Notes under the pieces: model-generated | Told to the model about the DNA's origin: nothing | The model's database searches: none | The model's input: only the letters and a program-made list of their open reading frames with translations | Source: Solirubrobacterales bacterium | GTDB lineage: Bacteria > Actinomycetota > Thermoleophilia > Solirubrobacterales > 70-9 | Length of the DNA stretch: 61,591 nt | Assembly (NCBI GenBank): GCA_035996525.1 | Contig: DASYJK010000100.1 | Location: forward strand, 1-61,591 | Reading direction: 5' to 3' | Shown: one piece after another, positions 20,948 to 46,989 of the stretch | Layout: the number at the start of each line of letters is the position of its first letter | How positions within the stretch are numbered: position 1 is the first letter of the stretch | Position numbers and translations under genes: made by a program

Positions 20948-20993
20948 CGAGCGATCGTACCCTCGGTCGAGCGGGCGCAGTACCGTCAGCCCG

Positions 20994-28881: not shown

Positions 28882-29019
28882 TTGCCCGAACCTGCCCGGA
28901 TGCGAAGCACCGGCCGATCCTAGGTTGGATCGCAAGCAACCGCAACCTAAACGCCTGAGTGACTTCATCTGCCATCGGTCGGGTTGTTAGTGTGAAACCG
29001 TCGAGGCGAGGAGATGGCA

Positions 29020-30717
29020 ATGAGCGCACAACTTCGGTTTTCGGTCCATCGCGGTGACGGCGCCGCGCTGCTCGCTTTCGACGTAGACGGGAGCCTGGCT
29101 CCTGAACTTGCCGGCTTTGCGGTCGAGTGCGAACCGCCGGGCGCGGCCGCCTACCCGATCCTCAACCGCCTCAGCTTCGGCCACGCGGTTACGGCAGATA
29201 CGACTCCTAGCGAACGCCGCTGGACTCCCACCACCGAAGCACCAATCCAGAAATTTCACTGGATTCACTATCCGAAAGACGTCCCCGCAGGAACCTTCAC
29301 CTACAGGGCAACGGCGATGCTCTTTGCGGCCGGGAGCGAGAGCGAGCTCGTGGCGGGCCCAACCGCAGAGTTCTCCCTTGAGCTCCGTGACGGAGGTTAC
29401 GGCGACTTCAAGCTCGGATTCACCCGCGGCTACATCTCCTCGCAGGCTTACGCCGAGCGCTTCGAGAACGCCGCGATCGAGCCGGACTCGCCGACGATCG
29501 GTTTCGACACCGCTCCCTACGAGGACCAGTATCGCTGGCTGGGTGCCCATGCACGCAAGCTGCTTTTCGAATTGATCGATGAGACGGTCGCTGACCCACA
29601 ACTCAGCCTCGACGTCTTCGCCTACGACTTCGATGAGCCCGATGTGATTACCAAGCTCGCGGAACTTGGTCCACGCTTGCGCCTGTATCTCGACAACTCG
29701 TCAAGCCATGTCGCCGGCAAAGGCTCCTCCCGCCAGCCGCGAGAGGTAGAAGCGCTAGAGAAGATCACGGCCTCAGCGGGCGCCGACAACGTGAAGGTCG
29801 GCCATTTCTCTCGGTATGCCCACGACAAGATCTTGATCCAGAAGCGGGGGGAAGATGCGATCAAGGTCCTCAGCGGCTCTGCCAACTTCTCCGTGAGGGG
29901 TCTCTATGTTCAATCGAACAACGTCTTCGTCTTCGACGATCCGACTGTCGCAGCGCTCTACGAGCAGGCGTTCACTCAAGCCTGGACGGATGCCAGTGGC
30001 TTCGGCAAGAGCTCGATCGCCGCTCAATGGTTCCCCGAACCGCATGGCACGAAGCCAAAACTGCCGGACTTCCAGGTCAGCTTTGCTCCCCATAGCGACC
30101 CGGAAGTCTCCCTGCGCCCGGTCGCGGACGCGATCAAAGAGGCGAAAAGCTCGGTTCTCTTTTCGATTATGGAGATCGGCACCGGCAGCGGAGCCGTTCT
30201 CGACGCCGTTCGGGCATTGCCAGATCGTTCTGAGATCTACGCGTTCGGCACGACCCAGCGTCTCGACGGTTCGCTGAAAGTTACTTCGCCGGGAACGAGC
30301 AGCCCTGTCTTCATTCCGTTCGAGTATCTGCACTCAAAGGTTCCAAAGCCCTTCCGCGTAGAGATCAGTGGTGGGTCAGGGCAAGTGATCCATCACAAGT
30401 TCGTCGTGGTCGATTTCACCGGCCCCGATGCGGTGGTATTCGCCGGATCATCGAATCTCGCCGCGGGCGGGGAGCACGAGAACGGAGACAACTTGCTCGC
30501 CTTCCGCGGTCCGGCAGTTGCTTCCACCTACGCAGTCGAGGCGATCCGACTTGTCGACCACTATCGGTTTCGGGAGGCCATGCTCGAAGCCACCGAAGAC
30601 GCCCCGTTGCAACTCGCGACCAGGAGCGCCAATTGGACGGCTCCCTACTTCGACACTTCTACGCCGAAGTATCGAGAGCGGATGCTCTTTGCGCCAGCGA
30701 GGCCGGAGACGCCCTAA
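29020..30717 (+). CDS. Phospholipase-D-superfamily protein with two HKD motifs and N-terminal beta-sandwich-like domain
   Basis: HDKILIQKRGEDAIKVLSGSANFS and HHKFVVVDFTGPDAVVFAGSSNLAAGGEHENGDN (HxK..D...GS.N twice); GAGGAG 6 nt before ATG 29020 (alt ATG 29014). Confidence 0.85.
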   Translation: MSAQLRFSVHRGDGAALLAFDVDGSLAPELAGFAVECEPPGAAAYPILNRLSFGHAVTADTTPSERRWTPTTEAPIQKFHWIHYPKDVPAGTFTYRATAMLFAAGSESELVAGPTAEFSLELRDGGYGDFKLGFTRGYISSQAYAERFENAAIEPDSPTIGFDTAPYEDQYRWLGAHARKLLFELIDETVADPQLSLDVFAYDFDEPDVITKLAELGPRLRLYLDNSSSHVAGKGSSRQPREVEALEKITASAGADNVKVGHFSRYAHDKILIQKRGEDAIKVLSGSANFSVRGLYVQSNNVFVFDDPTVAALYEQAFTQAWTDASGFGKSSIAAQWFPEPHGTKPKLPDFQVSFAPHSDPEVSLRPVADAIKEAKSSVLFSIMEIGTGSGAVLDAVRALPDRSEIYAFGTTQRLDGSLKVTSPGTSSPVFIPFEYLHSKVPKPFRVEISGGSGQVIHHKFVVVDFTGPDAVVFAGSSNLAAGGEHENGDNLLAFRGPAVASTYAVEAIRLVDHYRFREAMLEATEDAPLQLATRSANWTAPYFDTSTPKYRERMLFAPARPETP

Positions 30718-30796: not shown

Positions 30797-31702
30797 CTAA
30801 CTGAGCCTCCTCTTCACACTCGTCGGGGATTCGCCGACGAGCTCTTTGAACAGCTCGGTTGCGTCGGTCCAGCCATCTACGGCCTGCTGCCTCGTGCTAA
30901 GTCCGGTGTTCATCAGGACGTTTCGGAGGGTCCGGTGTCTCCTCCTCTCATCCTTGCTCCAGATATTGTCGATCCGCTTCGACAGTAGTAACTTTTCATC
31001 GGCAATCAGGTACGCATCGACGGCTTCTCGGGCGAATTTCTCCAGGTCGAGGTTTCCGACAAGAATTGTGTCCATCTGTTCGATCAACCGATGAGATCCA
31101 CGAATCATGGTCGTGGTCTCCTTGAATCGAGGAGCGCTGCCTTCATCAAAGCGAGCGAGAAAGGCCTCTACGTCGAGTCCGGCGTATTCCGACCGGACCC
31201 TTTCCTTGTTCGCTATTAGCGTGTCGCGTGCTGCGACGGTCGGCTTTCCGGTCGAGGTGCGGTGCAAAAGCCGATGGCGCCACTTACGAGCAACTTGGGC
31301 CAGTGCCCATGGCGCATTGTTGTTGACTCCGCAGAGGTCGGCCAGAGCCTCGAAGCGCTTGGTCGAATCGGACTGTCTTGCGAGGATTTTCGCCGTAGCC
31401 TGATCTTGGAGAAGCGTCGGTTTCGACGTGATGTCAGAGACGTAGGCATCGAGTCCGTCGATCAAGAGTGCCAGCGCGGCGAGTGACGCGAAACCGCTGC
31501 TCCGGTCCGCCGATCGCCTCGGATCTCTCGGGTCCCAGCTCGTCCACGAAGGACTAGACGCGTCCGCCCGGCCCTGACGAACGGCGTCGAGGCCCACCTC
31601 GATGGTGATCAGGAATTGGTTGGCCTGGCCGAGGTTCTCTTTGAAATTACGTCGGGCCGGAGATATCTCAAGGTTGATGAACTCCATCAAACCGCCCGAC
31701 AC
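30797..31702 (-). CDS. Hypothetical all-helical protein with an Rx4H (HEPN-like) motif
   Basis: Lower-GC ORF, no recognised family; central WRHRLLHR fits R-x4-H; alternative start ATG 31687 (MEFINLE...). Confidence 0.5.
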   Translation of the reverse strand: MSGGLMEFINLEISPARRNFKENLGQANQFLITIEVGLDAVRQGRADASSPSWTSWDPRDPRRSADRSSGFASLAALALLIDGLDAYVSDITSKPTLLQDQATAKILARQSDSTKRFEALADLCGVNNNAPWALAQVARKWRHRLLHRTSTGKPTVAARDTLIANKERVRSEYAGLDVEAFLARFDEGSAPRFKETTTMIRGSHRLIEQMDTILVGNLDLEKFAREAVDAYLIADEKLLLSKRIDNIWSKDERRRHRTLRNVLMNTGLSTRQQAVDGWTDATELFKELVGESPTSVKRRLS

Positions 31703-31915
31703 GACTCGAACGTGTATTTCCGGCTTTTAGGGGCCTCGTTGGAGGCAGCTGAAGGCCGGCGTCTATCCAATTGACCACAGGCGGAACGTCCGCAGTATCG
31801 ATTATCTGCCCGGATCGCGCGGCTCTCGGATATCGCGACGACCTACCGCTTCCAGTGCCTGACCGAAGGCGCCTATTAGGCGAATCTCGCCATCTGCCCA
31901 CAAAGCGTTCTTGCC

Positions 31916-32341
31916 TCAATCGGCTTTCCGCCCGCGGCGAGCCCGTTCGGACTCGGGGACCGAGCGCCTGATCGCGTGCCAGATGAACGCCCAGTCCTCG
32001 GGGTCCTCGGGTTGCTTGCCGCGGAAGTTGATCTGGGCGAGCATCGCGCGGTCGCGGGCGCCGAGGCCCTCTCGATCTGCGAAGGTGATCAGGGCGGGGG
32101 GTAGTTCGCTCGGATCGTCGACTAGGACCGATTTGCCCATCAGCGCCGACATCGAGGTGCCGAGCGCCCGCGAGATCTTGTAGAGGGTCTCGGCCGACGG
32201 GCGCGCTTCGACGTCGCCTTTCTCGAGCTTCCAGAGGTATCCCTTGCTGACGCCCGCATCCTCGGCCAACCGGCCGAGAGAGCGGCCGCTCTCCACACGA
32301 TGACGTCTGATCTCCCTGCCGATGTTCTGCGCCTCAGCCAT
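31916..32341 (-). CDS. XRE-family HTH regulator (CapH-like / ImmR-like)
   Basis: IRRHRVESGRSLGRLAEDAGVSKGYLWKLEKGD...PSAETLYKISRALG; start ATG 32341 overlaps the stop of the upstream peptidase gene by 8 nt (alt GTG 32350). Confidence 0.75.
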   Translation of the reverse strand: MAEAQNIGREIRRHRVESGRSLGRLAEDAGVSKGYLWKLEKGDVEARPSAETLYKISRALGTSMSALMGKSVLVDDPSELPPALITFADREGLGARDRAMLAQINFRGKQPEDPEDWAFIWHAIRRSVPESERARRGRKAD

Positions 32342-33209
32342 CGGCCTCACCGACCCTGCGGAAGATCGCGATCACCCGTCGGCCCAGCTCACCGCCCCGG
32401 CTGTATCCGAACACCCTCGCACTGACCTCGACCGTGCCCTCGCTCATAAGACCGAACTCCTCCAACCCTGCCTTCTCTCTGACCATCTCGCCGTCCAACG
32501 CTCGCACCAGCACGCCATCCTCCAGCGCTGATTTGTTCTTCGGGATGAACGGCCATGCTCCGGGGGGATAGGGCCATGCCGATACGACTCTGAGCTTCGC
32601 GACCGCCTCCGGATCGTCCCGCTCGTCTCGACGTAGGCCTGGCTCAAGGATTACCACAAGCGTCGGCTCGGGCCAGAAGTGGGCGAAGCGGTAGGCCGTC
32701 GCCTCGCGGCTCGCCTCGTATCGGTCCGACAGGTCCACGACCGAGGCGATCGAGAAATCCGACTCGAGGGTTGCCGGCCCGAAGTGATCGCGTGGTAGAA
32801 GCAACTCGGATGCGGCGACGTCGGCGAGCGTCTCGCGGTCGGCGCCCGGCCGCCTCACCGGGCTCGGCGCCGCGCAGCGAAAGAGCGTCAGCTCCCGGTA
32901 GCCCGGCTGGAAGGTGTGGCCGACCTCGTGGAAGCCGGTGAACCGTCGCCGCCGCGGCGAGTCCTCGGCGCGCAGGCGCATCTCCAGGTTCCGCGGACCG
33001 GGCGCCAGGGAGCCTGCCTGCTCCATCGCCACCACCTGGATGTCGGCGATGTCGCGGAAGGAGGCGACGACCTCCAGCGGGATCGGCGGCTCGACCCCGA
33101 GCTCGGCGACCAGTCGGGCCGCGATGTCGGCGACCCGCTCGGCGTCAGTCTTACGTGGCGAGCGCCTGCGCTCTTCCTCGAGCAGCGAGAGAGGGGTCGG
33201 AGAGGACAT
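32334..33209 (-). CDS. ImmA/IrrE-family zinc metallopeptidase (CapP-like / ImmA-like)
   Basis: FTGFHEVGHTF (HExxH) followed by ...ASELLLPRDHF and AYRF, the COG2856 pattern; start ATG 33209 (alt TTG 33242). Confidence 0.75.
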   Translation of the reverse strand: MSSPTPLSLLEEERRRSPRKTDAERVADIAARLVAELGVEPPIPLEVVASFRDIADIQVVAMEQAGSLAPGPRNLEMRLRAEDSPRRRRFTGFHEVGHTFQPGYRELTLFRCAAPSPVRRPGADRETLADVAASELLLPRDHFGPATLESDFSIASVVDLSDRYEASREATAYRFAHFWPEPTLVVILEPGLRRDERDDPEAVAKLRVVSAWPYPPGAWPFIPKNKSALEDGVLVRALDGEMVREKAGLEEFGLMSEGTVEVSARVFGYSRGGELGRRVIAIFRRVGEADG

Positions 33210-33268
33210 CGTTCTTGACCGAGAATCTACCCGTTCTCGCAAGACACATTTTCTGCTACGGTCGATTC

Positions 33269-33284
33269 GTTCTCTCTAGAGAAC
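33269..33284. promoter_or_regulatory. Inverted repeat GTTCTC-N4-GAGAAC in the divergent promoter (candidate repressor operator)
   Basis: Perfect 6-bp arms 35 nt upstream of the nucleotidyltransferase ATG; related half-sites GTTCT at 33211 and 33233 and AGAAT at 33222. Confidence 0.4.
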
Positions 33285-33318
33285 ACTACCGTGAACGATC
33301 AAGAAAGCGAGGCGGCAG

Positions 33319-34413
33319 ATGCCGACCACCCAAGACCCACCGAACCGAAGCTACACCGCACCTGCAAATGCCGCCTTGGCGGAGATCCTCAAAGAGATCT
33401 CCGTGCCGATGGCGGTGCTCGAAGAGGCTCGCCGCCGCCGCGACCGCGTGCTGGTGATCGCCGAGACCCATGATGCCGCCCGAGACGGTGCTGGCTTCGC
33501 CTCCGGGAGCGTCGCCCACGGCACTACCAACCGCCCACTCGAGGATGCCGACTGCGGAGTCAAGGTGAACCGTCGCTACGAGGAGTTCCGTGCCTTCGGG
33601 CCCGACTCGTCGACCGACCGCGGACCTGAGGCCTTCATCGCGCTCTTCTCGCAGTTCGTCCTGCCGCGGCTGCGCAAGCGCCATCCCCGCGCCGAGGTCG
33701 ACCTCGGCGGCAACCGCGCGATCAAGTTCATGTTCAACGAGCCTGTCGAGATCGACGAGTGGGGTCCGGTCGACCCCTACGTCGAGCTCATCGTCGGCCT
33801 CGACCGTGTCGACCAGCCCGGCATCTGGATCCCCAATCGTCGCCAGCGCAGCTGGGATCCCGCCGACCCCGAGTACCACACCCTGCTGATGACCGCGCGC
33901 CACCCCCAGGATCTGCGCACCCTCCGTGCACACGTGCTGCGGCTGGTCAAGCGCGCGGTGAAGCGCGACGCGGCCGAAGGCGGCGTCGCGGTGATCTGCA
34001 GCTGGAACTTGAGCGCGCTCGCCCTCGAGCTGATCACCGAGACCGGGCCGCTGGCCCAAACCATGTACGGGTTCCTTCGCGGCGCCTCGGCGGGCATCGC
34101 CGCCAGCCTCACCGAGGACCCCGCGCCCGCCGTCGTCGAGCCGATCAAGCTGCCCGAGGGGGTCACCCGTGCCCAGGCGGCGGCGCGCCTCGCCGAGATG
34201 GCGGAGAGCGTCGGCGCCGCCCTCGGTGCTCGCTCCAAGGAGGGCGCCCGTGCCCATCTAGACACCCTCTTTGGCCCCGAGATCGAAGGAATCTTGGCGC
34301 GCGAGCGGCGTGGCCTCGCCGCGGGTCTCGTAGGTGGCGAGGGGGCTGCCGCGGTCGGCGCTGGCCTCCTTGGCGGCCGGATGCCGAAGCCGACGCGCTC
34401 GGGCGGAGCATGA
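33319..34413 (+). CDS. Pol-beta-fold nucleotidyltransferase, CD-NTase/SMODS-like (candidate signal synthase)
   Basis: GSVAHGTTNRPLEDADCGV (GS..GT...[DE]xD), VELIVGLD...GIWIPNRRQRSWDPADPEYH, VLRLVKRAVKR...SWNLSALALEL follow the CD-NTase order; Gly-rich tail ending TRSGGA. Confidence 0.6.
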   Translation: MPTTQDPPNRSYTAPANAALAEILKEISVPMAVLEEARRRRDRVLVIAETHDAARDGAGFASGSVAHGTTNRPLEDADCGVKVNRRYEEFRAFGPDSSTDRGPEAFIALFSQFVLPRLRKRHPRAEVDLGGNRAIKFMFNEPVEIDEWGPVDPYVELIVGLDRVDQPGIWIPNRRQRSWDPADPEYHTLLMTARHPQDLRTLRAHVLRLVKRAVKRDAAEGGVAVICSWNLSALALELITETGPLAQTMYGFLRGASAGIAASLTEDPAPAVVEPIKLPEGVTRAQAAARLAEMAESVGAALGARSKEGARAHLDTLFGPEIEGILARERRGLAAGLVGGEGAAAVGAGLLGGRMPKPTRSGGA

Positions 34414-34883
34414 GCGAGCTCGCCCTGCGCGACCACGAGCGGGCCGGCGACCTCGTCACCGATGTCGCCGGCCAGTACCTGCTCGAGGCCGACGCTCGTC
34501 GCGACGGCATCGCCTTCGAGCGCGAGTTCACCGCCGGCGCCCTGGTCTACCGATTCGCCGTCGGTGTCCCTGCCTCCACCGAAGAGCGGAACGTCAGTGT
34601 CGGGTTCCACCCGGGCCAGGAGCAGCCGGCCGTCCATGCCGACGGGCCGCCGTGCCTTCGCCACCGCTGGTCGGACGAGTCGCTATGCATGTGGGATCCT
34701 GACGGGCCTCGCAGCGAGCGCTGGGTCACCGGCGACGGCCTCGCGAGCCTCGCCGCCCAAGTCCAGGTCCATCTCTTCTGCGAGTCGCAGTGTCGGGCTG
34801 GTGGGCTTTGGCCGAAGGCCGAGATGGCCGGGAAGCACCCGCGAAAAAGGGCCTGCCCAAGCTGCGGCGGCCGCGGCCGGTGA
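34410..34883 (+). CDS. E2 (ubiquitin-conjugating)-like small protein
   Basis: ATG overlaps NTase stop (ATGA). FHPGQEQPAVHADGPPCLRHRWSDESLCMWDPDGPRSERW resembles HPN-x(n)-C...W of UBC folds; C-terminal CPSCGG. Confidence 0.5.
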   Translation: MSELALRDHERAGDLVTDVAGQYLLEADARRDGIAFEREFTAGALVYRFAVGVPASTEERNVSVGFHPGQEQPAVHADGPPCLRHRWSDESLCMWDPDGPRSERWVTGDGLASLAAQVQVHLFCESQCRAGGLWPKAEMAGKHPRKRACPSCGGRGR

Positions 34884-35428
34884 CCCAGCTCGCAGCGATC
34901 AGCCCGGGGGTGGGAGGTGCCGCGATCGGCGCCGCCGTCGGCCTCTTCGGCGTCCTCGTCGGGCTGTGGATCAACGGCGACCGGGCCGAGCGGGGACGCC
35001 GCCGCGATCTGCACGCCCGCGCCCTCGCGGCCGTGCTCGACTACGGCGAGATGCCGTTCATGATCCGCCGCCGGCGCGCCGAGCCGGCGGAGCGAAGCGC
35101 CGAGCGGATCCGCCTCTCCGACCACTTCTCCGCCGTGAAAGCCGAGATCTCGACCTGCCAGGTGCTGCTCTCCGCCGACGGCGCGCAGGCCATCGCCGGT
35201 GCCTACGACCGCCTGGTCGACACCGCTCGTGCCGTGGTCGGCAAAGAGGCCCACGAGGCCTGGACCGAGGAGCCGATCACCACCGACGCGGAGATGAACA
35301 TGGGGCCGCTGTTCCAGCGACTTGCGGGACTCCGGACCCAGCTCGACGAGTTCGAGGCCGAGCTCGCCTGGGCGACTCTTCCACGCCGCAGACGACTCTG
35401 GCGTCGGCTGAGGCGACGGGGGCCCTAG
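34880..35428 (+). CDS. Single-pass membrane protein with helical cytoplasmic domain and Arg-rich tail (candidate effector)
   Basis: GTG overlaps E2-like stop (GTGA); N-terminal TM GVGGAAIGAAVGLFGVLVGLWI, then charged helical region, tail LPRRRRLWRRLRRRGP; no known domain recognised. Confidence 0.5.
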   Translation: MTQLAAISPGVGGAAIGAAVGLFGVLVGLWINGDRAERGRRRDLHARALAAVLDYGEMPFMIRRRRAEPAERSAERIRLSDHFSAVKAEISTCQVLLSADGAQAIAGAYDRLVDTARAVVGKEAHEAWTEEPITTDAEMNMGPLFQRLAGLRTQLDEFEAELAWATLPRRRRLWRRLRRRGP

Positions 35429-35739
35429 GCCGTGAGGTCTGCGCAGCCGTTGGCAATTTTGCATACCGAGCCAGGACGGCCTGCGAGTCTGGCGGTCCCC
35501 GTCGCGGAACGTCGTGGTTCAGAGCCGTAGCTTGTTACCGCCATCCGGCGGAATCTTCTCGACTCGGTGGGCGCCTGAGAACAGATCGAGCCGCCCCACC
35601 CAGACGACCACGCCCATTGCGAGTTCTGCGGCGCCAAGTTCATGGGATCCCGCCATCAGTCTGCACTCTCTCGAAGCGCCCAGACCATTCCTCCAATTAG
35701 GATTTCCAGAACGGTAGAGCTAAGCCTAGGGAGGCGTCT

Positions 35740-37146
35740 ATGAATACCGGTGGGGAGGATAGCGTCGAGGTTGATCAGAGCGTTCCGCTTTTCGGCGCTC
35801 GCAAGCGGGCCAAGGAGCTCGCGGCAGAAACTTCTGAGCTCCGACGGGAGCTCGACCGGCTCGGCGGCCTTACCGTGCTTGAACTGGAAGCAAAGAAGCA
35901 GGCTTTGGCCGACGAGATAGAGGCCCAGCGCGAGCGTTTGGACAGCGAGAAGACCGCGGGCGTCGAGGCGCTAAGCAGGCAGATTGAGGAGGCGACGGCT
36001 GCGCTGAACGCCGAGCTGGCTGCAGCAAAATTGCAGAAAACAGAGCTCGAGCGCCAGATCGCCGAGCTGAACCAGCAAGTCGTGGTGACCGAGGAGACGG
36101 CGCTTCTCCAGGAAGCCGGTGTCTACGACTATCACCATCCGCTCAGCGATTCCGTCGAGTATCAAGAGGCACTGAAGGCGGTTCGTGAGCAGGTTAAAGC
36201 AATGACGCGCAAGGACGGCGGCGCGGTTAGGGGCGCCACTCAGTGGACCGTCAACGGTTCACTCCCCCAAGGCCGAAAGATGGTCCGGGACTTCTCGAAA
36301 CTGATGCTTCGTGCCTATAACGCCGAGGCAGACAACCTGGTTCGCAGCTTGAAGCCCTACAAGCTCGATGCCGCCAAGGAGCGCCTAACGAAGGTTGTCG
36401 CGACGATTGCACGCCTCGGACGGACGATGGACATCCACATATCGGGGCCCTATCACGAGTTGCGTGAATACGAGCTGGAGCTGACCGCCGACTACCGACA
36501 GAAGCTCGCCGAGGAGAAGGAGCGCGAGCGCGAAGAAAAAGAGCAGCTTCGCGAAGAGCGAAAAGCCCAGCAGGAAATGGAGCGCGAGCGGGCTCGGCTG
36601 GAAAAGGAGCGGCAGCACTATCTGAACGCATTGGAGTCGCTGCGCGAGAAAGGGGACGCGGAAGCAGTGGCCAGGCACGAGGCCGAGCTCGAGAGGATCC
36701 AACGGGCGATCGACGACGTCGACTATCGGGCAGCGAACATCCGCGCCGGCTACGTCTACGTGATCTCGAACGTGGGCTCATTCGGCGAGGGCGTCGTGAA
36801 GATCGGCTTGACCCGACGGCTCGATCCCTCGGAACGCGTGCGCGAGTTAGGCGACGCCTCAGTTCCCTTTCGTTTCGACACGCACGCGTTGCTGTTCTCA
36901 AAGGACGCGGTTGGGATCGAGGCAAGTCTTCATCAGCGCCTTGCCGCGTGCCGCGTAAACCGGATCAACACCCGCCGCGAGTTTTTCTACGCGACTCCCG
37001 CAGAGGTCAAGGCACATCTGCTGGATGTAGCGGGAGAGCTCCTGTCATACGAGGAGACTCCCGAGGCGCTGGAATTCCGTCAAAGCCAGAACATGGCCGC
37101 CGCTGAAACCGCCGATCGGGCATCGAACACTCTGCCGACGGTCTGA
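35740..37146 (+). CDS. DUF4041-like + T5orf172/MUG113 (GIY-YIG-superfamily) nuclease-domain protein
   Basis: GGGAGG + ATG; coiled coils; C-terminal GYVYVISNVGSFGEGVVKIGLTRRLDPSERVRELGDASVPFRFDTHALLFS...LHQRL...REFF is the T5orf172 signature. Confidence 0.75.
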   Translation: MNTGGEDSVEVDQSVPLFGARKRAKELAAETSELRRELDRLGGLTVLELEAKKQALADEIEAQRERLDSEKTAGVEALSRQIEEATAALNAELAAAKLQKTELERQIAELNQQVVVTEETALLQEAGVYDYHHPLSDSVEYQEALKAVREQVKAMTRKDGGAVRGATQWTVNGSLPQGRKMVRDFSKLMLRAYNAEADNLVRSLKPYKLDAAKERLTKVVATIARLGRTMDIHISGPYHELREYELELTADYRQKLAEEKEREREEKEQLREERKAQQEMERERARLEKERQHYLNALESLREKGDAEAVARHEAELERIQRAIDDVDYRAANIRAGYVYVISNVGSFGEGVVKIGLTRRLDPSERVRELGDASVPFRFDTHALLFSKDAVGIEASLHQRLAACRVNRINTRREFFYATPAEVKAHLLDVAGELLSYEETPEALEFRQSQNMAAAETADRASNTLPTV

Positions 37147-37167
37147 GAGGAAGACTGAGCGCCAAAA

Positions 37168-39771
37168 ATGGAGACCCCGGAGTTCAACCAGTTTCTCGAT
37201 GGACTCGAGTCGGAGCGGTTTGGAGAGCTAAGGCCTGCCCAAGCCGCTGTCCTCAACGAATACGCATTAGATCATCTCGAGACGCCAGATCTCGCCATCG
37301 AGCTCCCGACCGGCGCCGGTAAGAGCTTGGTAGCACTCCTAATCGGAGAGGCATGGCGTCAGCAAGGACGAACGGTGGCCGTACTCACCGGTAACAAAAC
37401 CCTTGCAACTCAGATGGAGCGAGAGGGTAACGACCTCAATGCCCCCGTCGCACGGATGGAGGGTCGCGGTCCCGACATCCCCTTGAGCTTAAGACGGCGG
37501 TATCGACGCGCCGCAGCAATTGGCGTGATGAATTACTGGGTGATGTTCAACACGAATCCAGTGGTCGACTCCGCAGATCTTTTGGTGATCGACGATGCCC
37601 ACCTCGCGGAGAATGCCCTCCAGAGCCTATTTTCGATGCGGATAGACCGCTACGCACATCCGCAACTCTTCTCGATGCTCGTTACGGAGCTTTCTGCACG
37701 CCTCCCGGACTATGCGAGTCTGGAGGATGCCCAAAGTGATGATCCCTATCCTCGCGCGGGCGTCGAGCTGATGTCCTTCCTGGATCAGGCGGGTGTGGCG
37801 GGCCGCATCCGGGAGGTCGTGGAGGGCGCGCCAGAGCTCGTCACTGATCGAGACCTACCATTTCGCTGGCGTGGCGTTCGAGACCGGCTCGCCGAGTGCA
37901 ACGTCTACCTATCCCAGCGGTCAATCACGATACGACCGTTCTGTCTGCCCGTGCAAACTCTGCCGCGCTGGAGCGATCCGACGCAGCGTCTCTACCTCTC
38001 GGCCACTATCGGAGATCCTGCTGACCTCCAACGCCGACTTGGATGTGGTCCCATCACCAAGATCGGCTCTGACGCTGATACCCCGACCTTAGGTCGAAGG
38101 TTGATCGTGCTCAATAACGACATAGAGGCACCCCAAGATCAGTTGCTGCCGGAGCGGGCAGCATCTGTTGTACTCGACGCGCTTCGCGTTACGCCGAAGG
38201 CAATTTGGCTTTGCGCATCGACCGCGCAGGCGGAGAGCTGGATGACGGCAATCCCTCCATGGTTGAATGCCCATGGGGTGCCCGTTGGGCCGGTGTGGCT
38301 ATTGAGCTCGATGGGAGATGAGATTGAGCTCTTCCAGTCTGCAGCTGCTGGTCACCTCTTCGTCGCTGGGCGGTTCGACGGAATGGATTTCGCCGGGGAT
38401 CAGTGCAGATTAGTTGTGCTGGCAACGTTGCCTCGCGCTGTAAACGATCAGGAGCAGTTCATCTCGGACTACTTACGTGATGCGTCGTTCCTGACGGGGC
38501 GGACTAACGAACGAATCATTCAGGCACTCGGTCGCTGCAATCGACATGCCGGTGATTTCGCTGTGTACGTGCTTGCGGATCGACGTTTCGCTGCTCACTT
38601 GGGGCAGGAGGCGAACCGGACCGGGTTGTCGGCTGCGATACAGGCTGAGCTTGATCTCGCAGAGGAGCTCGATGAGGTAGGGGACGCCGAGCTCTCAAGT
38701 CGAATCACGGAATTTCTAAACGGCGACTTCGCGGCCTACGATCAGCAGCTGGCTGAACTCAGGTACGAGCTGCCGCCGCCTTTGCTTCCCGCACCCGACG
38801 AAGCGGACGAGGAAGTTCGGGGTTGGCTCGCGCTGAACGGCCGGCAAGACTACTTGGCGGCGGAGACTCACTTTCGCAAGCGGCAAGAAGAACTTGGTTC
38901 CTTGGAGCTCCGGGAGCTCGGAGCCTTCATGCAGTACACGCAGGCAAAGGCGTCATTTCTTGAGGGATCGCGCGGGGATGCGGCTGCTGCAGCCCGCAGC
39001 AGGGTCGCGATGGATGGTGCAATTGAGCGAGGCGGGAGTTCGAGCGCTTGGTTTAACCGACTGCGCTCTTCCGTAGCGCGAAGCAGTCAGACGGACGAAG
39101 CGATAACTGTCAGCGGAAACGAGTTTCGAGCCGTTTGCGTGCGCAGCATTGATGAGCAGCTCGAGAGAACCCCGCCGGGATCGAAGCTTGACCGCTGGCG
39201 ACAACGGCTCGCAGATCAGCTGTCTTCAGGCTCGCATAACGAGTACGCGGCAGGTCTTGGCGCCATCGGAGGATTGCTGGGCTACAGCGCTGTCTTCCCC
39301 AAGTACGGTGCCGCAACTGACTGCCGGTGGCGCGGAGTATTTGGGAATGCCCGAGAGGCAATTACCTTCGAGTGCAAGATCGAGCACAAGCCGGGTTCTG
39401 AGATCGACGCACGGGCAGTGGGACAAGCTCACAATCAACGTGCCCGTGCGGTCACTGAGCTGGAGAAGAGTGGGTATGCAGTACGGGGTCTGATCGTCAC
39501 CCATCTCGATCGCCTCGCGGCCGATGCCGCCCCAGGCTTAGGCGAGATCGTGGTTATGTCGGCTGAGGCTGTTGCCGCCTTGCGATCCCGACTGGATCAG
39601 CTCTTGGCCAGCCTGGCCAGCGGATGGTCCCTCGAGGATCCACAGGCCCGGGTCGCTGCTGGTGAGGAGCTGGCTTCGAGGCTGCCGGACACTGGCTGGT
39701 TGATCGATGCGATCGATAATGCCGATCGATTCTTGAACGCTGAGTCGTTGCTGGCAGACTGGCCTGACTGA
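37168..39771 (+). CDS. SF2 (DExH-type) helicase fused to C-terminal PD-(D/E)xK nuclease-like domain
   Basis: ELPTGAGKS (I), LLVIDDAHL (II), LYLSATIGD (III), FVAGRFDGMDFAG (V), QALGRCNRH (VI); C-term ATDCRWRGVFGNAREAITFECKIEH = D..E.K. Confidence 0.8.
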   Translation: METPEFNQFLDGLESERFGELRPAQAAVLNEYALDHLETPDLAIELPTGAGKSLVALLIGEAWRQQGRTVAVLTGNKTLATQMEREGNDLNAPVARMEGRGPDIPLSLRRRYRRAAAIGVMNYWVMFNTNPVVDSADLLVIDDAHLAENALQSLFSMRIDRYAHPQLFSMLVTELSARLPDYASLEDAQSDDPYPRAGVELMSFLDQAGVAGRIREVVEGAPELVTDRDLPFRWRGVRDRLAECNVYLSQRSITIRPFCLPVQTLPRWSDPTQRLYLSATIGDPADLQRRLGCGPITKIGSDADTPTLGRRLIVLNNDIEAPQDQLLPERAASVVLDALRVTPKAIWLCASTAQAESWMTAIPPWLNAHGVPVGPVWLLSSMGDEIELFQSAAAGHLFVAGRFDGMDFAGDQCRLVVLATLPRAVNDQEQFISDYLRDASFLTGRTNERIIQALGRCNRHAGDFAVYVLADRRFAAHLGQEANRTGLSAAIQAELDLAEELDEVGDAELSSRITEFLNGDFAAYDQQLAELRYELPPPLLPAPDEADEEVRGWLALNGRQDYLAAETHFRKRQEELGSLELRELGAFMQYTQAKASFLEGSRGDAAAAARSRVAMDGAIERGGSSSAWFNRLRSSVARSSQTDEAITVSGNEFRAVCVRSIDEQLERTPPGSKLDRWRQRLADQLSSGSHNEYAAGLGAIGGLLGYSAVFPKYGAATDCRWRGVFGNAREAITFECKIEHKPGSEIDARAVGQAHNQRARAVTELEKSGYAVRGLIVTHLDRLAADAAPGLGEIVVMSAEAVAALRSRLDQLLASLASGWSLEDPQARVAAGEELASRLPDTGWLIDAIDNADRFLNAESLLADWPD

Positions 39772-39926
39772 CGCGGGCTCCGCGGCCGCTGGGATCCGAA
39801 GGCGTGAACCTCTGCAGGACTCAGTAGGGAATTGACGTGAGGCAGGAGGGGCGATTCACGGCCAAGACGCTCGCCTGACTGATGGTTGAGTGATTCGACG
39901 GATAGGAGCGTTAGGGTCAGGTCGGG

Positions 39927-40712
39927 ATGGCGCGCAAGACCCAGACGCTGAGTGCGGAGAAGATCGGCAAGCCCGGCCGTGCGCCATTGCAGGCTGCACT
40001 GGTCGAGATGCGTGAGATGGGTGCCCGGACTTTCCTGCAGGTTGAGGAGATCTATCTGGGGGCGATGCGGGAATTCGACCAATTGGTCGCAGACGGCACG
40101 GCCGATGCCGGCGACATGCGGAACGGCAAGGGCGACTTCTTCAACGACATGCTGGCTCTGTTGCTCGCCAACTGTTCGGGCAAGGAGCTCCACAGCAGGC
40201 CGGGGGTCCCAGGACTCAGCTTTAAGAAGCACAAACTTGATGTCGCTTACCCGGCGAGGGGCGCTGTCGACCTCGTGATCGAGACCAAGGCGACGGGCCT
40301 CCCCAAACACCCCGGCAATGAGAAGCAGAAGAACCCGGAAGGGCGACCGGGGTCCGCAGATCTTGAGAAGAGAATCAAGGAGGCGAGCTTCAAGAACATC
40401 GACATCAAGGCTGAGCAGGCGCGGCTCGCTGGCGAAGGCGGGGGTCCGACCTCCGACCTCGGGACGTGGATCAGACGTGCTCCACCCCTCTGCTACATGT
40501 TCCTAGCCGTGCGCACGATCGATGCGGTCGACCTGAGGCGCACGATCGACTACGGACATGTGGCGAGCGTCTGGTTCGACGCCTGCGGGGTCTACTGCTA
40601 CGGCTGGAACGAGCGCAAGGATGCCTACGTTGCCAAGGACGTCAGGGCGGCGAACATCGAGCTCGACAGGGTCCTCTCCCAGGTCTGCACGGCGCTGCGG
40701 AACCTGCCCTAG
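39927..40712 (+). CDS. Probable type II restriction endonuclease (PD-(D/E)xK)
   Basis: NGKGDFFNDMLALLL and LDVAYPARGAVDLVIETKATG (D...E.K); convergent with, and overlapping by 4 nt, a DNA methyltransferase gene. Confidence 0.55.
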   Translation: MARKTQTLSAEKIGKPGRAPLQAALVEMREMGARTFLQVEEIYLGAMREFDQLVADGTADAGDMRNGKGDFFNDMLALLLANCSGKELHSRPGVPGLSFKKHKLDVAYPARGAVDLVIETKATGLPKHPGNEKQKNPEGRPGSADLEKRIKEASFKNIDIKAEQARLAGEGGGPTSDLGTWIRRAPPLCYMFLAVRTIDAVDLRRTIDYGHVASVWFDACGVYCYGWNERKDAYVAKDVRAANIELDRVLSQVCTALRNLP

Positions 40713-42430
40713 CTTTGGACGGCGACTGGACGGGCGCCGCGCGACCGGCGCCTGGCACGGAGCTGCGCACCGCCATCGCGAAGCGCGCGGATCTCTTCAC
40801 CCGAGAGCCCCAAACCCTCGCCGAGGACGATCGGATCGATGAGGTCGAGGGCCGCCTCCAGTTCGCGGCTGCGGATCAGCCCATCGACCTCGTCCAGTAA
40901 TTCACCCAGGTTCTCGGGCACGGGGGGCAGGATCAATGAGCCGGCCTCGGTCGGCTCGAGCTTCAAGACGCCGCCGCCGTAGCTGCGTCCGACGAGCTCC
41001 GCGCTGAGGAGCGTGAGGCTGTTGTAGAAGGCAACACCGAGCGAAGCCGCGTCCATGGGGGTCTTGAGATAGACGCCGTGGATCGTGTTCGTTTGGAGGA
41101 CGCCGGCCTCGTTGAGGACAAGGCGCGGATGCTCACTCGCGAAGTAGGTGAGGAGAAGATCCGCGACGCCGCGCCTTGGAATCGGCACCGACCACCAAGG
41201 CTCGCGGACGCGGCATTTGTAGGCGTCGGGTACCCCCATCTCCTCGCCCACCGCGATCCGGTTCTGCACGGCCGGACTTCGTGGCTTCGAGCCGGTGTCG
41301 GCCACGAACATGAGCCCTTTTCGTCCGTCGGCCAGAAGCCGGGAGTGATCCTCGGCGGAGAGGCGCGCTCCAGCGATCTGCGCAGCCTTGCTTACCGCCG
41401 GGTGGACCACCCGTCTGGGCATGCCTTTGGCCTCGGCGCGAGTCAGCAGGAAAAAGTCGTTGGAGCCAGTAACGGCACCGATGTCGACTGCTGCAATGTC
41501 TGCGAGTTTCGTCGTCTCGGGTCTGCCGGAGAGCTCGGTGAGAAGGTCCCGAGTCTCCGCGGGAAGGAGCCTGCCCAAGAGCTTCCCAGGTGCGTGCGAG
41601 TCGCCGGACTGGTTGATCGCGGGAAAGAGCTGCGAGGTGTCGAGCTCTGCGAGGGACTCGAATGAGACGAGATCGACTGAGCCTTGGGCGTCGATGTTCC
41701 GCCCCTCGGCGAAGAGGAGGACGACCTCCTCTAGTGCCCCCGGGAAGACTCGTTGGTCGAAGACGGCGATTGCGATGCGGTCGAAGTTCGCCGCCAGATG
41801 ACGCGTAATCCCCGTCGCGTACTGGGCATGGATCAACTCCGCTGGGAGGACCTGGGCCATCCGCCCTCCGTCGCTGACGAAACTGGTCGCGTGGATTAGG
41901 AAAGGCGCCCACGAGGAGGCGAGGCGGGTGAGTGGCACGCCGGCCTCAGCGGCGATCCGATGAGCGACCTCGGCGGTGCCGTTGAAGTCCTGATAGCGGA
42001 CGTAAGGCGGGTTGCCGACTACGGCCTCGACCCGCGGAGTCTCCTCGCCGGGCCGCATGTCGAAGAAGTCGCCACGATGGAGCGTAGCCTCCTCGGTCCC
42101 TGCGAGTGGCCGGAGGAACGCGCCCTCATCGACGTCGGCGCCAAAGACTTGTGCTTGGGTGGCCTTGGGATTTGCCCCGAGCAGCTTGAGCCTCCGCAGC
42201 GCAGCTTCCAGGAACACGAATCCGCCGAAGCTGGGATCGAAGACCCGATCATCCGGCGAGCGCACCGCCCAGTCGACAAGGGCGGCCGCCATCTCGGGGG
42301 GCGTATAGAAGGCGCCGAGCGCCTTTCTGGCTTGGCGCTCGGTCAGCGTCGCGGTCATCCCAGCGACTTTATGGATGCCGGCGGATCGTTGATCGGTCTT
42401 GAACCCAGGGAGCGTGTCTTGCCGGTGCAT
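40709..42430 (-). CDS. N6-adenine DNA methyltransferase (gamma-class, Eco57I/TaqI-like) with C-terminal TRD
   Basis: GAFYTPPEMAAALVDW, VFDPSFGGFVFL (motif I), VVGNPPYVRYQDF (motif IV NPPY); alt start 42358. Confidence 0.85.
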   Translation of the reverse strand: MHRQDTLPGFKTDQRSAGIHKVAGMTATLTERQARKALGAFYTPPEMAAALVDWAVRSPDDRVFDPSFGGFVFLEAALRRLKLLGANPKATQAQVFGADVDEGAFLRPLAGTEEATLHRGDFFDMRPGEETPRVEAVVGNPPYVRYQDFNGTAEVAHRIAAEAGVPLTRLASSWAPFLIHATSFVSDGGRMAQVLPAELIHAQYATGITRHLAANFDRIAIAVFDQRVFPGALEEVVLLFAEGRNIDAQGSVDLVSFESLAELDTSQLFPAINQSGDSHAPGKLLGRLLPAETRDLLTELSGRPETTKLADIAAVDIGAVTGSNDFFLLTRAEAKGMPRRVVHPAVSKAAQIAGARLSAEDHSRLLADGRKGLMFVADTGSKPRSPAVQNRIAVGEEMGVPDAYKCRVREPWWSVPIPRRGVADLLLTYFASEHPRLVLNEAGVLQTNTIHGVYLKTPMDAASLGVAFYNSLTLLSAELVGRSYGGGVLKLEPTEAGSLILPPVPENLGELLDEVDGLIRSRELEAALDLIDPIVLGEGLGLSGEEIRALRDGGAQLRARRRSRGARPVAVQS

Positions 42431-42540: not shown

Positions 42541-42914
42541 TCCAGTTGTCGGCCGGCCTGGACGACCTATCGGAGCGCCGTCGTATCCGCGCAAAACACG
42601 CAGAAATCTGAGCCACCCCCCAAATGTATTAGCGCGGATTACCGGGGATTGCCCTCGATTGGGGAATCCGATTTTTTCGACTTGACTTCTCCATTTCGCG
42701 GAGCTACTCCGGAAGGAATGAACACCTTCCACTGCTATAGGAGGCCCCGTTTGAACGCAACTGAGCTCGTTCTCTTATTCACACACCCGACCGCACAACA
42801 AACCGCTTATCCGACCGCTCACGATCGGGCCGCGACCCCACCTATCCCGCGCTGTCTGTGCGCTTCCGCCGTCGCGATTTTGCCGACATCTCTGCTCCCC
42901 GTCGAGGTCGGTCC

Positions 42915-45518
42915 ATGAGCTCGGGCGATCGACAGGACCCGAGGCCGATGATCGCGATCCTCGTCGGCGCTCTCAGCATCGCCGCCTGGCGGACCATCTC
43001 GCCCATCAGCCCCGGCCAGGTGCTCTCCGCCGTCGGCTCGCTCGCGCCCCTCGCTCTCGGCGCCCTCGCTATCGCCTCCGCGCTGGCTATGCAGCGGCTG
43101 CTCTTGACCAACCGCACGCTCGCCAGTCGCCGGGAGGTGGCCGTAGTGCCGGCCGACGACTTCGACCCCAAGACCGACGCCGTCCTTCGCTTCGCCGCCG
43201 AGCTCGCCGCGACCGAACGCCGTCTGCGCGGCCGGTTCGATCGCCGCGCCCAGGCGGTGCGGGTGCGACTCACCAACGACGCCGAGGGTCGGCTTGTCTA
43301 CCTGCTGAGCGTGCCGGAGCGGTCGGGCAAGGCTCTGCGGGGAGCCCTCGGCGCCTACGAGGGCTTCGAGGTGCGCGAGCCCAAGGACGTGCTCGGCGAG
43401 CGAAAGGGCGCCGAGGAGTTGGCCACCGTCCGAACCGAGCTGACCCTCGCCCGCTCGAGTCTCGAGCCCTTGGCCCAGCTCTCCTTGGAGCCCGATCCGC
43501 TGCAGGGCTTCGCCTCGGCCCTCGAGGTCTCCCGGTCGAAGAAGGGGGAGGAGGTCAGCGTCTGCATTGACCTACTCCCAGCCTCTGGCCATCGCCGCGA
43601 ACGCCTGCGCCGCTCCCTGCGCCGACGGGCCGCCCGCAAGTACGGCGAGCGCCCGAGTCTGCTCGAGCGCCTCGAAGGCAACGAGCGCAGCAAGGGTCGC
43701 CCCGGCCCGGACAAGCTGCTCGAGCGCCGGATGGTCAACGACGCTCTGGAGGAGAAACTGCGCGACGCCGGCACGCTCTTCGAAGCGCAGATCCTGCTGC
43801 GCTGCCGGGCCGTCGATCGCGCTCGCGCCAAGTCGACGATGCAGCTCCTGCTCGGCGCCTTTGCGCCCTTCACCGCCCAGAATTGGCTGCGCGCCCGCGG
43901 CCTCTCGCTCGGCCTTGCCTTCCTCGGCTCCGACCTGCCGCTGCGGCGCGCGCGCTTCGACCGCCGCATGGACACCGGCCTCTTCGCTCCGCCCAAGCGC
44001 GCGGTCCTGACCGCCAGCGAGATGGCCGGCTTCCTCAAGCCTCCGAGCATGCACTGCAGGGGCGACAACGTCGCCCGGGCCGGGACGCTGCTCGCAGCGG
44101 CGCCGAAGCTGCCGGAGTTCAGGCCGGACAAGGCCGACGTGATCCCCCTCGGCAAGGTCGGCACCAACGGCTCTGAGCGCGTCCTCGGCGTCAGGGCCGC
44201 CGACACCTTCTTCTCCTACATCGCCGGCCGCTCGCGTTATGGCAAGACCGAGCTCGCGATCGCCCAGTTCGTCCACCTGGTCCGCTCGGGCCATGGCGGC
44301 TTCTTCCTCGACCCCCACGGCGATGCCCTGGAGCGGATCCGTCCCTACCTGAGCGATCCGAAGCTGCGCAGCCGGGTGGTGGAGATCGACCTCGGCCCCG
44401 GCCATGCCGCGGCTCAGCCCGGCTGGAACCTCTTCGAGCTCGGCGGCGAGGACGGAGGGGAGGAGCGGGTCGCCGCGTTGGTCGACGCCTTCTCCTCGGT
44501 GCTCGAATGGGGCGAGCGCTCGACGCGGGCGATCAACCTGACGAGTCACGCCGCGGCCGCCCTGGTGCGGATCGCCAAGGTGTTGCCGCCCGAGTTGGCG
44601 CCGACGATCTTTCAGCTGCCGACCCTGCTCTCCGACAAGATCTGGCGGGAGGCGACCATGCCCTTCCTGCCCGCGGCCTCCCGGCGCTTCTGGCGCGACC
44701 GCTTCCCGCTGCTCAGTCCCGAGGCGATCACCCCGGTCACCAACCTCGTCGACCGCCTGCAGCTCTCAAGCGCTATGCGCACCCTGCTCGGCCAGAGCCA
44801 GGGCAGCTTCCGCATCCGCGAGGCGATGGACGAGGGGCTAATCGTCCTCGCCTGCCCGGGCGCCGGCCACTCGCAGGAGCGCTTGCTGGCGAACCTGCTG
44901 GTCTTCGACCTCCTGCACTCCGCTCGCAGCCGCGGCGAGCTGGCCGCGAAGAGGCGAAAGCCCTTCTGGGTCTTCCTCGACGAGGTGCAGAGCTATGACG
45001 GCGGGGGCTCGGGCAGCCTCGCCGCTCTGCTCGAGCAGAGCGCCAAGTTCGGGCTGCGGGCCGTACTCCTGAACCAGAACCCCGAGCGGCTCTCCGCCCA
45101 GACCCTGAACGCGCTCACCACCAACCGCTCCCACATGCTGGCCACCGCGCTCAACTCCCACGCGGCGGCGCTGCTGACCAAAGAGTGGGGTGGGCAGCCG
45201 AGCCCCGCTGTCATGGTCGGGCTGCCGCGCTTTCAGTTCGTCACCCAGGTCACCCACGAAGGAGAGCTAAGCCGCCCCTTTGCCCTTCGAGGGATCCGGG
45301 TCGAGGACGTGCACGAGAAGTCGGAGGCCGGTACCGGCGGACCCCTCGGCGGTGCCGTCCGGCGGGCGGAGCCCGCGCAGGTCTCCGAGCACTTGGAGAC
45401 GCTCGATGACCGGATCCTCGCTCACCTGAAGGGCCTCGCCCCACCCGCCGAGGAGGAGCCCGAAGAGCCCGAGGAGGAGAGTCCGTACTGGCTCGGAGGC
45501 AAGACCGGTGGCAACTGA
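42915..45518 (+). CDS. TraD/VirD4-like (type IV coupling protein-like) membrane-anchored P-loop ATPase
   Basis: Two N-terminal TM helices, Walker A GRSRYGKT, Walker B FWVFLDEVQSY; followed by a replication-relaxation gene. Confidence 0.7.
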   Translation: MSSGDRQDPRPMIAILVGALSIAAWRTISPISPGQVLSAVGSLAPLALGALAIASALAMQRLLLTNRTLASRREVAVVPADDFDPKTDAVLRFAAELAATERRLRGRFDRRAQAVRVRLTNDAEGRLVYLLSVPERSGKALRGALGAYEGFEVREPKDVLGERKGAEELATVRTELTLARSSLEPLAQLSLEPDPLQGFASALEVSRSKKGEEVSVCIDLLPASGHRRERLRRSLRRRAARKYGERPSLLERLEGNERSKGRPGPDKLLERRMVNDALEEKLRDAGTLFEAQILLRCRAVDRARAKSTMQLLLGAFAPFTAQNWLRARGLSLGLAFLGSDLPLRRARFDRRMDTGLFAPPKRAVLTASEMAGFLKPPSMHCRGDNVARAGTLLAAAPKLPEFRPDKADVIPLGKVGTNGSERVLGVRAADTFFSYIAGRSRYGKTELAIAQFVHLVRSGHGGFFLDPHGDALERIRPYLSDPKLRSRVVEIDLGPGHAAAQPGWNLFELGGEDGGEERVAALVDAFSSVLEWGERSTRAINLTSHAAAALVRIAKVLPPELAPTIFQLPTLLSDKIWREATMPFLPAASRRFWRDRFPLLSPEAITPVTNLVDRLQLSSAMRTLLGQSQGSFRIREAMDEGLIVLACPGAGHSQERLLANLLVFDLLHSARSRGELAAKRRKPFWVFLDEVQSYDGGGSGSLAALLEQSAKFGLRAVLLNQNPERLSAQTLNALTTNRSHMLATALNSHAAALLTKEWGGQPSPAVMVGLPRFQFVTQVTHEGELSRPFALRGIRVEDVHEKSEAGTGGPLGGAVRRAEPAQVSEHLETLDDRILAHLKGLAPPAEEEPEEPEEESPYWLGGKTGGN

Positions 45519-46889: not shown

Positions 46890-46989
46890 CCTACGGCGCG
46901 ATGATCAGCCTAGAGGCGAGGAGGTCCCTGTCGCCACTTGGCGGTCGCGCCTGCCGTGCTCCGACGCCCCCGGACAGGAGGTGATCCGA

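Follow-up and report, generated by a model that had tools for sequence, protein, structure and literature searches.

A SNIPE homologue and an Hna-family helicase-nuclease lie back to back in a tRNA-Ala integrative element of a Solirubrobacterales bacterium

Two adjacent genes in a low-GC patch

We analyzed a 61,591 nt stretch of DNA from a Solirubrobacterales bacterium (contig DASYJK010000100.1 of assembly GCA_035996525.1), hereafter the window, and within it two co-directional genes that are separated by 21 nt. Gene 1 encodes a 468 aa protein and gene 2 an 867 aa protein; the coordinates of both and of the surrounding features are compiled in Table 1. The GC content is 0.595-0.616 over 36-40 kb vs ~0.70 in most of the window, in agreement with an earlier note on this DNA, which had described a tightly linked gene pair in a patch of lower GC. 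The earlier note regarded the pair either as a new two-component system or as two stacked single-gene systems. Our analysis supports stacking: at a probability of about 0.85, gene 1, a SNIPE (PD-lambda-1) homologue, and gene 2, an Hna-family helicase-nuclease, are single-gene anti-phage systems independent of each other that stand back to back, probably co-transcribed, as cargo of a ~24 kb integrative element in tRNA-Ala.

Gene 1, a SNIPE homologue without a predicted membrane anchor

A PADLOC scan, one of the checks proposed in the earlier note, assigned gene 1 to PD-Lambda-1 and gene 2 to PDC-S28. Gene 1 is aligned end to end with the PD-Lambda-1 model PDLC03976 (E 5.7e-115; aa 30-459 on positions 39-479 of the 491-position profile) and also matches a second PD-Lambda-1 model, PDLC03977 (E 6.9e-107). 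Pfam detected DUF4041 (PF13250, now labelled SNIPE) at aa 187-242 with E 1.5e-17 and 63.7 bits vs a cut-off of 27, and both T5orf172 (E 2.1e-14) and MUG113 (E 9.9e-14) at aa 337-427. NCBIfam returned an informative match for neither the gene 1 nor the gene 2 protein. The AlphaFold model of gene 1, with a predicted local distance difference test score (pLDDT) of 75, is elongated and helical. In this model a disordered N-terminus is followed by a coiled coil at aa 20-113 including a long helix (46-113), a globular region at 138-235 within the DUF4041 part (~138-242), a second long helix (236-336) and a nuclease domain at 339-436, the GIY-YIG/T5orf172 part being 337-436. Pfam and the two long helices agree with the long coiled coils and the C-terminal T5orf172/MUG113 domain that had been read from the translation before. 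The GIY-YIG signature is represented by GYVYV, KIG, RR and RREFF, which are conserved among homologues. E414, which lies in RREFF and is kept in 90% or more of 52 homologues, is the putative catalytic Glu and may correspond to E414 of the E. coli protein.

PD-lambda-1 of E. coli (Vassallo et al., 2022, PMC9519451), now named SNIPE (Saxton et al., 2026, PMC13190303), works as a single gene and requires both its DUF4041 and its GIY-YIG domain. This is the described system behind the statement of the earlier note that proteins with DUF4041 and T5orf172 have been reported as stand-alone anti-phage nucleases. DUF4041 of SNIPE binds DNA and probably also the phage tape-measure protein (PMC13190303). 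Gene 1 has the same order of parts, that is, a variable N-terminal region, DUF4041, a long helix and a C-terminal GIY-YIG/T5orf172 domain, and likewise shows an elongated helical predicted shape and single-gene contexts. Its host is high-GC and actinobacterium-like, and its closest relatives are labelled Solirubrobacterales, which distinguishes it from E. coli SNIPE.

Unlike the membrane-anchored E. coli SNIPE, gene 1 has no transmembrane segment: its Kyte-Doolittle hydropathy over 19 residues peaks at 1.12, and within the first 120 aa of 120 close homologues no value above 1.6 occurs. The N-terminal 113 aa form the coiled coil, and a recognizable membrane-targeting domain is absent from them. 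In E. coli SNIPE, the N-terminal transmembrane anchor is required to prevent self-cleavage (PMC13190303). However, the lack of this segment does not exclude gene 1 from the family because 34% of SNIPE homologues are also without a predicted transmembrane segment and may reach the membrane otherwise, while 66% have one (PMC13190303). Since the close relatives of this kind that were sampled with their context never adjoin Hna, the anchor-less state is independent of Hna. As judged from sequence, gene 1 is a member of the SNIPE/PD-lambda-1 family of single-gene anti-phage systems and belongs to its known but uncharacterized subclass without a transmembrane segment.

Gene 2, a member of the Hna family

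Gene 2 matches PDC-S28 (PDLC04987) at E 5.6e-77 over aa 18-514 (profile positions 34-508 of 846), and its C-terminal aa 629-824 match positions 614-814 of the same profile separately at E 3.3e-10. Because both parts match in profile order, the two halves of gene 2 are collinear with the PDC-S28 family. The hidden Markov model (HMM) matches of the two genes, with E values from 1e-77 to 1e-115, are too strong to be due to chance. Residues 32-514 of Hna from Sinorhizobium meliloti (Sather et al., 2023, as cited in PMC13381803), taken from an alignment of 10UJ, match PDC-S28 at E 4e-198; thus, PDC-S28 represents the Hna family. In a phmmer search of PDB sequences, the single strong match of gene 2 was 10UJ_A (with 9YHN and 9YKJ) at E 1.3e-20, in the helicase half only, and a profile of 14 sequences found Hna at E 8.8e-33. 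The C-terminal 348 aa gave only noise in phmmer against PDB (E > 0.1). As phmmer cannot align the nuclease (NUC) half, its homology is based on the PADLOC profile and on the fold.

The AlphaFold model of gene 2 (pLDDT 87; predicted template-modelling score 0.81) was compared with known structures by Foldseek. The top match was the Hna monomer 9YHN over the full length, with E 1.2e-29, template-modelling scores of 0.62/0.65 and 886 alignment columns, followed by DinG at E 8.5e-13 and then XPD and CasDinG at ~1e-12. Pfam identified DEAD/ResIII and Helicase_C_2, the latter being the C-terminal helicase domain of the DinG/Rad3 type. The helicase motifs GAGKS (Walker A, 49-53), DDAH (142-145), SAT (278-280) and QALGRCNR (QxxGRxxR, 452-459) form the complete set listed in the earlier note, and they are invariant across 68 homologues together with the nuclease residues D718, E735, C736 and K737. 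The D, E-C-K residues of the nuclease core were correctly recognized from the start but their spacing was not, since the measured pattern is D-x16-E-C-K instead of D-x17-E-C-K. Similarly, the helical linker between the helicase and the nuclease core had been put at about 150 aa, whereas the helical region measures ~200 aa (residues ~489-703). In the model, D718 is placed just ahead of the second strand of the NUC domain and E735-x-K737 at the end of the third strand, and a helical insertion between motifs II and III (aa 146-277) resembles a reduced Arch domain.

S. meliloti Hna is an 845 aa single effector with DinG-like HEL1/HEL2 domains, no iron-sulfur (Fe-S) cluster, a reduced Arch and a C-terminal PD-(D/E)xK NUC domain with the catalytic K729, for which cryo-EM structures are available (9YHN/10UJ and 9YKJ; Hooper et al., 2026, PMC13381803). 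Gene 2 is also one polypeptide of ~850 aa with HEL1/HEL2 and a reduced Arch; because no cysteine is found between motifs I and II (aa 54-141), it would lack an Fe-S cluster like Hna. K737 of gene 2 and K729 of Hna are at a similar distance from the C-terminus, and both proteins fall into the same PADLOC family and stand in stand-alone gene contexts. Gene 2 differs from S. meliloti Hna in that it belongs to a distinct, well-conserved clade, and it is likened to Hna from sequence and predicted fold. This clade is tight, with lengths of 865-870 aa and internal identities of 47-88%, and is found in Solirubrobacterales, Nocardia, Acidobacteriota, Chloroflexota, Planctomycetota and others. Where the earlier note had called gene 2 reminiscent of Hna, PADLOC, PDB and Foldseek go further: the protein is assigned to the Hna family (PDC-S28) as a predicted DinG-like superfamily 2 (SF2) helicase fused to a PD-(D/E)xK nuclease.

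Homologues of the two genes are not paired elsewhere

We searched for the pair in both directions. For gene 2, 80 loci were collected from one genome per species with flanks of up to ±10 kb each; for gene 1, 80 metagenomic loci carrying relatives of 49-76% identity were used, 54 of which extend at least 1 kb downstream. A tblastn search with gene 1 over the 80 gene-2 genome loci found nothing at E <= 1e-3, and no gene-2 relative was present among the 80 gene-1 metagenomic loci. When family HMMs were run on six-frame translations of 84 loci per direction, an intact SNIPE was found at 0/84 loci of gene-2 relatives and Hna at 0/84 loci of gene-1 relatives; at these loci, the co-occurrence check named in the earlier note gave no intact pair. 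Clustering the neighbours of gene-2 relatives at the 80 genome loci revealed no conserved partner, the largest real cluster comprising 5 loci. The top clusters in this analysis were discarded as shadow open reading frames (ORFs) inside the helicase gene of a divergent actinobacterial group.

The actual neighbours are diverse. An Hna gene 87% identical to gene 2 (L081/L082) is preceded by DUF1508 and followed by SIR2 and an SMC-like ATPase, with AbiEi/AbiEii nearby; a 76%-identical relative adjoins an MmeI-type restriction-modification system, and relatives of 72-74% identity adjoin TIR, antitoxins of toxin-antitoxin systems, CBASS (cyclic oligonucleotide-based anti-phage signaling system) or a kinase. 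SNIPE relatives that are 79-86% identical to gene 1 adjoin AbiE, PemK/PIN or RecA, and across the range of 49-86% identity their neighbours vary and none is Hna. For the gene that precedes the closest gene-1 relative, no match was obtained 5′ of gene 1 in the window.

At the DNA level, similarity to the Hna relatives L081/L082 spans 37149-39775, that is, the gene with 19 nt upstream and 4 nt downstream, and the left border of this cassette at 37149 falls within the spacer between the two genes. Similarity to the SNIPE relatives spans 35770-37112. Because DNA similarity ends at the gene borders, each gene moves as a gene-sized cassette. The 87%-identical Hna on L081 (JGI Ga0376689_0000071) is situated in a related integrative element at 6462-22604 with other cargo around it. 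The backbone of that element consists of an 870/886 aa protein and Replic_Relax, which are 71% and 77% identical to the 886 aa protein and Replic_Relax of the window, and its cargo is arranged in the order AbiEi/AbiEii, a 399 aa protein, DUF1508, Hna, and SIR2_2 with an SMC/AAA_23-like ATPase. The comparison of L081 with the window exemplifies how cassettes are swapped at one hotspot, and the pairing is a local, evolutionarily unstable juxtaposition.

A SNIPE remnant upstream of an intact Hna gene

The Logan contig SRR29932438_92539, hereafter L083, encodes an Hna that is 88% identical to gene 2 and keeps all motifs. Upstream of it, L083 aligns to window positions 35684-35801, covering the gene-1 leader and the first 20 codons, and to 37052-37167, covering the last 95 nt of gene 1 and the spacer. 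These two blocks are joined in region 621-906 of L083, where a 68 aa ORF (678-884) fuses the SNIPE head in frame to the SNIPE tail; the ORF is 52% identical to the tail (aa 427-468; E 9e-12), and ~1.25 kb of SNIPE is deleted. Directly ahead of the remnant and Hna, the leader and its GGAGG site are conserved, and L083 represents a naturally occurring SNIPE deletion form of the window's gene pair. No SNIPE remnant was seen at any other gene-2 locus. Since L083 keeps the SNIPE head, tail, spacer and leader, the SNIPE-Hna adjacency is ancestral to the window and L083.

The ratio of nonsynonymous to synonymous substitution rates (dN/dS) of Hna is ~0.07 in all three pairwise comparisons, whether SNIPE is upstream or not. 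Together with the deletion on L083, this value argues that Hna is independent of SNIPE. The arrangement also suggests that Hna would be transcribed from a promoter upstream of gene 1.

Spacer, leader and flanks of the gene pair

No terminator-like hairpin was found in the 21 nt spacer, which contains a purine-rich GAGAGGAAG tract, and gene 1 and gene 2 are probably co-transcribed. Non-coding DNA flanks the pair, with 311 nt on the 5′ side of gene 1 and 155 nt on the 3′ side of gene 2. A 412 aa ORF at 34462-35700 was considered as a CBASS effector adjoining gene 1 and was rejected as a shadow ORF: it translates into a nonsensical sequence rich in Arg, Pro and Ala, the GC content at third codon positions (GC3) is in the wrong phase, it has zero family matches, and the true coding frames near it switch at ~34790, the real genes there being those of the E2-like protein and the 1-TM effector (Table 1). 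Gene 1 is therefore preceded by the 311 nt non-coding gap.

The leader is the only DNA 5′ of gene 1 that is conserved with L083. It contains a TANNNT-type -10-like hexamer, TAGGAT, at 35698-35703 and the ribosome-binding site AGGGAGG at 35727-35734, 5 nt ahead of the ATG of gene 1. A sigma-70 consensus scan of 33000-40800 found no promoter. The leader is probably the promoter and 5′ untranslated region of the gene1-gene2 transcript, an assignment made because of its conservation with L083, which is the sole basis. A near-palindrome surrounds TCCTCCAATTAGGATT in the leader, with AATCCTCCAATTAGGATT as its counterpart on L083, and may serve as an operator or a promoter element.

The integrative element and its cargo

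A perfect 44 nt direct repeat (100% identity), whose right copy is the 3′ part of tRNA-Ala(CGC), bounds the ~24 kb integrative element in tRNA-Ala that carries the pair, and all defence genes in the region are cargo of this element. At 31916-35428 lies a complete short type II-like CBASS with divergent CapH/CapP regulators. On the other side of the pair, the restriction enzyme and methyltransferase genes are convergent and their 3′ ends overlap by 4 nt. The phosphoesterase-family and PLD-like genes at the left end may be further defence or accessory cargo. GC3 of gene 2 is ~0.65, below that of host genes, which is consistent with recent acquisition.

A 94 nt tRNA-Leu(CAG) called by ARAGORN on the minus strand at 31691-31784 was rejected as the attachment site since the repeat belongs to tRNA-Ala. 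It stayed below the gathering threshold of the Rfam tRNA model, overlaps the start of an ORF at 30797-31702, and probably represents either a false positive or a tRNA that has degraded. Two genes lie just beyond the element on its left side, first one for a HipA-like kinase toxin (23728-24990) and then one encoding an RTX calcium-binding repeat protein (24987-26942), in which 27 nt-periodic repeats are numerous.

Table 1. Features of the gene pair and the integrative element in the window
Feature	Coordinates	Strand	Remarks
attL	27122-27165	.	left copy of the 44 nt direct repeat
Phosphoesterase-family protein	27334-28968	-	left end of the element
PLD-like protein	29014-30717	+	weak DrmC-like match
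CapH	31916-32350	-	CBASS regulator
CapP	32334-33242	-	CBASS regulator
CD-NTase	33319-34413	+	CBASS cyclase
E2-like protein	34410-34883	+	overlaps the cyclase stop
1-TM CBASS effector	within 34790-35428	+	TM, transmembrane segment
Leader 5′ of gene 1	35684-35739	+	read from sequence; conserved with L083
Gene 1	35740-37146	+	468 aa, ATG start
Spacer	37147-37167	+	21 nt, purine-rich
Gene 2	37168-39771	+	867 aa, ATG start
Helicase half of gene 2	37219-38700	+	aa ~18-511
NUC domain of gene 2	39052-39639	+	aa ~629-824
Type II restriction enzyme (REase-like)	39927-40712	+	
Eco57I/N6_Mtase-type methyltransferase	40709-42430	-	
886 aa protein	42858-45518	+	
Replic_Relax	45508-46413	+	
Tyrosine integrase	46753-48285	+	
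attR	51144-51187	.	right copy of the 44 nt direct repeat
tRNA-Ala(CGC)	51146-51218	-	its 3′ part is the 44 nt repeat

Discussion

In this study we found that two neighbouring genes of a Solirubrobacterales integrative element have intact catalytic motifs, belong to two defence families and stand side by side in a pairing that is not conserved. Each is a new and divergent member of a single-gene system already known. E. coli SNIPE and S. meliloti Hna were shown experimentally to work alone (PMC13190303, PMC9519451, PMC13381803), and the biochemical mechanisms at this locus are pictured here after the literature on these two proteins. By analogy with E. coli, the SNIPE homologue would be held at the envelope, where DUF4041 would bind DNA and the tape-measure protein of the phage and the GIY-YIG domain would cut phage DNA while it is being injected. 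For the anchor-less gene 1, targeting to the membrane or to a partner would have to come from the N-terminal coiled coil. By analogy with S. meliloti, the Hna homologue would rest as an ATP-bound, auto-inhibited dimer until a phage factor, e.g. a phage single-stranded DNA-binding protein (SSB), releases it to act through its PD-(D/E)xK domain as a 3′-5′ exonuclease that degrades single-stranded DNA (ssDNA), and the activated enzyme would lead to abortive infection. The pair would thus form two separate defence layers.

Several observations weigh against two independent systems. The identity of gene 2 to S. meliloti Hna is ~18% in the structural alignment and its NUC domain is recognized only by profile and fold, so that its trigger and polarity could differ. 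Gene 1 lacks the anchor that stops self-cleavage in E. coli SNIPE, and would need some other restraint. The adjacency is common by descent to at least one further lineage, that of L083, and has therefore been kept for some time, and many of the sampled gene-1 loci are short. Moreover, with a terminator-free gap of 21 nt and non-coding DNA on both sides the pair resembles a bicistronic unit. Islands of this type often co-transcribe unrelated cargo.

In a rival reading, a SNIPE-like protein without an anchor and an Hna-like protein would act jointly, e.g. one sensing or nicking the phage DNA and the other degrading the ends, with the operon as the functional unit. The isolation and spacing of the two genes, the ancestry of their adjacency in two sampled lineages and the need of an anchor-less SNIPE for some means against self-cleavage (PMC13190303) speak for such a genuine two-component system. 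We nevertheless consider it very unlikely, as intact pairs were absent from all loci searched with HMMs in either direction, and relatives with identities as high as 87% (Hna) and 86% (SNIPE) already have other neighbours. L083 lost SNIPE while its Hna was retained intact under purifying selection, both families function as single genes in experiments (PMC13190303, PMC13381803), and the closest gene-1 relatives, which lack a hydrophobic N-terminus in 120 of 120 cases, do not adjoin Hna wherever their context was sampled. The earlier note had itself proposed to judge the question by whether homologues are neighbours and whether each matches a defined single-gene system; they are essentially never neighbours, the only trace being one decayed remnant, and each does match such a system. 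Hence its stacked alternative stands and its new two-component alternative does not. A coupling restricted to this lineage is improbable to a similar degree: the anchor-less SNIPE might cut phage DNA, incoming or replicating, and thereby supply 3′ ends or ssDNA for degradation by the co-expressed Hna, or Hna might restrain or localize SNIPE, so that the two act in synergy. As far as sequence comparison goes, neither gene needs the other in evolution, and the comparative data give synergy no support. If true, the coupling would mean a synergistic protection that neither gene gives alone.

Could one or both genes instead be decaying or inactive cargo? Defence-island cargo turns over fast, the SNIPE of L083 was lost by internal deletion, and the low GC3 of gene 2 fits a recent acquisition. 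However, both ORFs have full length compared with their families, gene 1 being covered end to end by its profile; all catalytic motifs are intact, and the dN/dS of Hna is low. We therefore judge decay to be very unlikely. The matches of the helicase half to DinG, XPD and FANCJ structures might point to housekeeping DNA repair by a DinG-like helicase and a GIY-YIG endonuclease. This is extremely unlikely, given that defence-specific models and the Hna structure match best, the latter ~17 orders of magnitude ahead of DinG by Foldseek E value, that gene 2 would have no Fe-S cluster, and that the genes are patchily distributed with variable defence-gene neighbours. Their position in a mobile island bounded by att sites, with CBASS on one side and restriction-modification on the other, also speaks against a housekeeping role.

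Gene 2 shares the XPD/DinG-type SF2 fold and Helicase_C_2 with DinG, ExoDinG and the CasDinG of type IV-A CRISPR systems, and the PADLOC model typeIV_DinG matches it at E 3.8e-24. In contrast to gene 2, DinG-type helicases are without the PD-(D/E)xK C-terminal domain, and gene 2 has no CRISPR association. Two-gene helicase and nuclease systems of the Hachiman type involve sensing of phage SSB or of DNA ends. The pair resembles Hachiman (HamA/HamB; cited in PMC13381803) in that a nuclease gene stands beside an SF2 helicase gene, but here the helicase bears its own nuclease and the partner gene is not conserved. In PADLOC, the pair matched neither HamA/HamB nor any multi-gene model.

With two independent systems as the preferred explanation, the module is to be annotated as SNIPE (PD-lambda-1) plus Hna and not as a new system, and the PADLOC candidate PDC-S28 is identified as the Hna family. 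New here is a well-conserved, divergent clade of 865-870 aa Hna proteins that is widespread in soil phyla. Also new is a SNIPE lineage without a transmembrane segment from high-GC bacteria, which could help to explain how an anchor-less SNIPE spares host DNA. The window together with L081 and L083 illustrates, in related elements, the exchange of gene-sized cassettes and their decay in defence islands.

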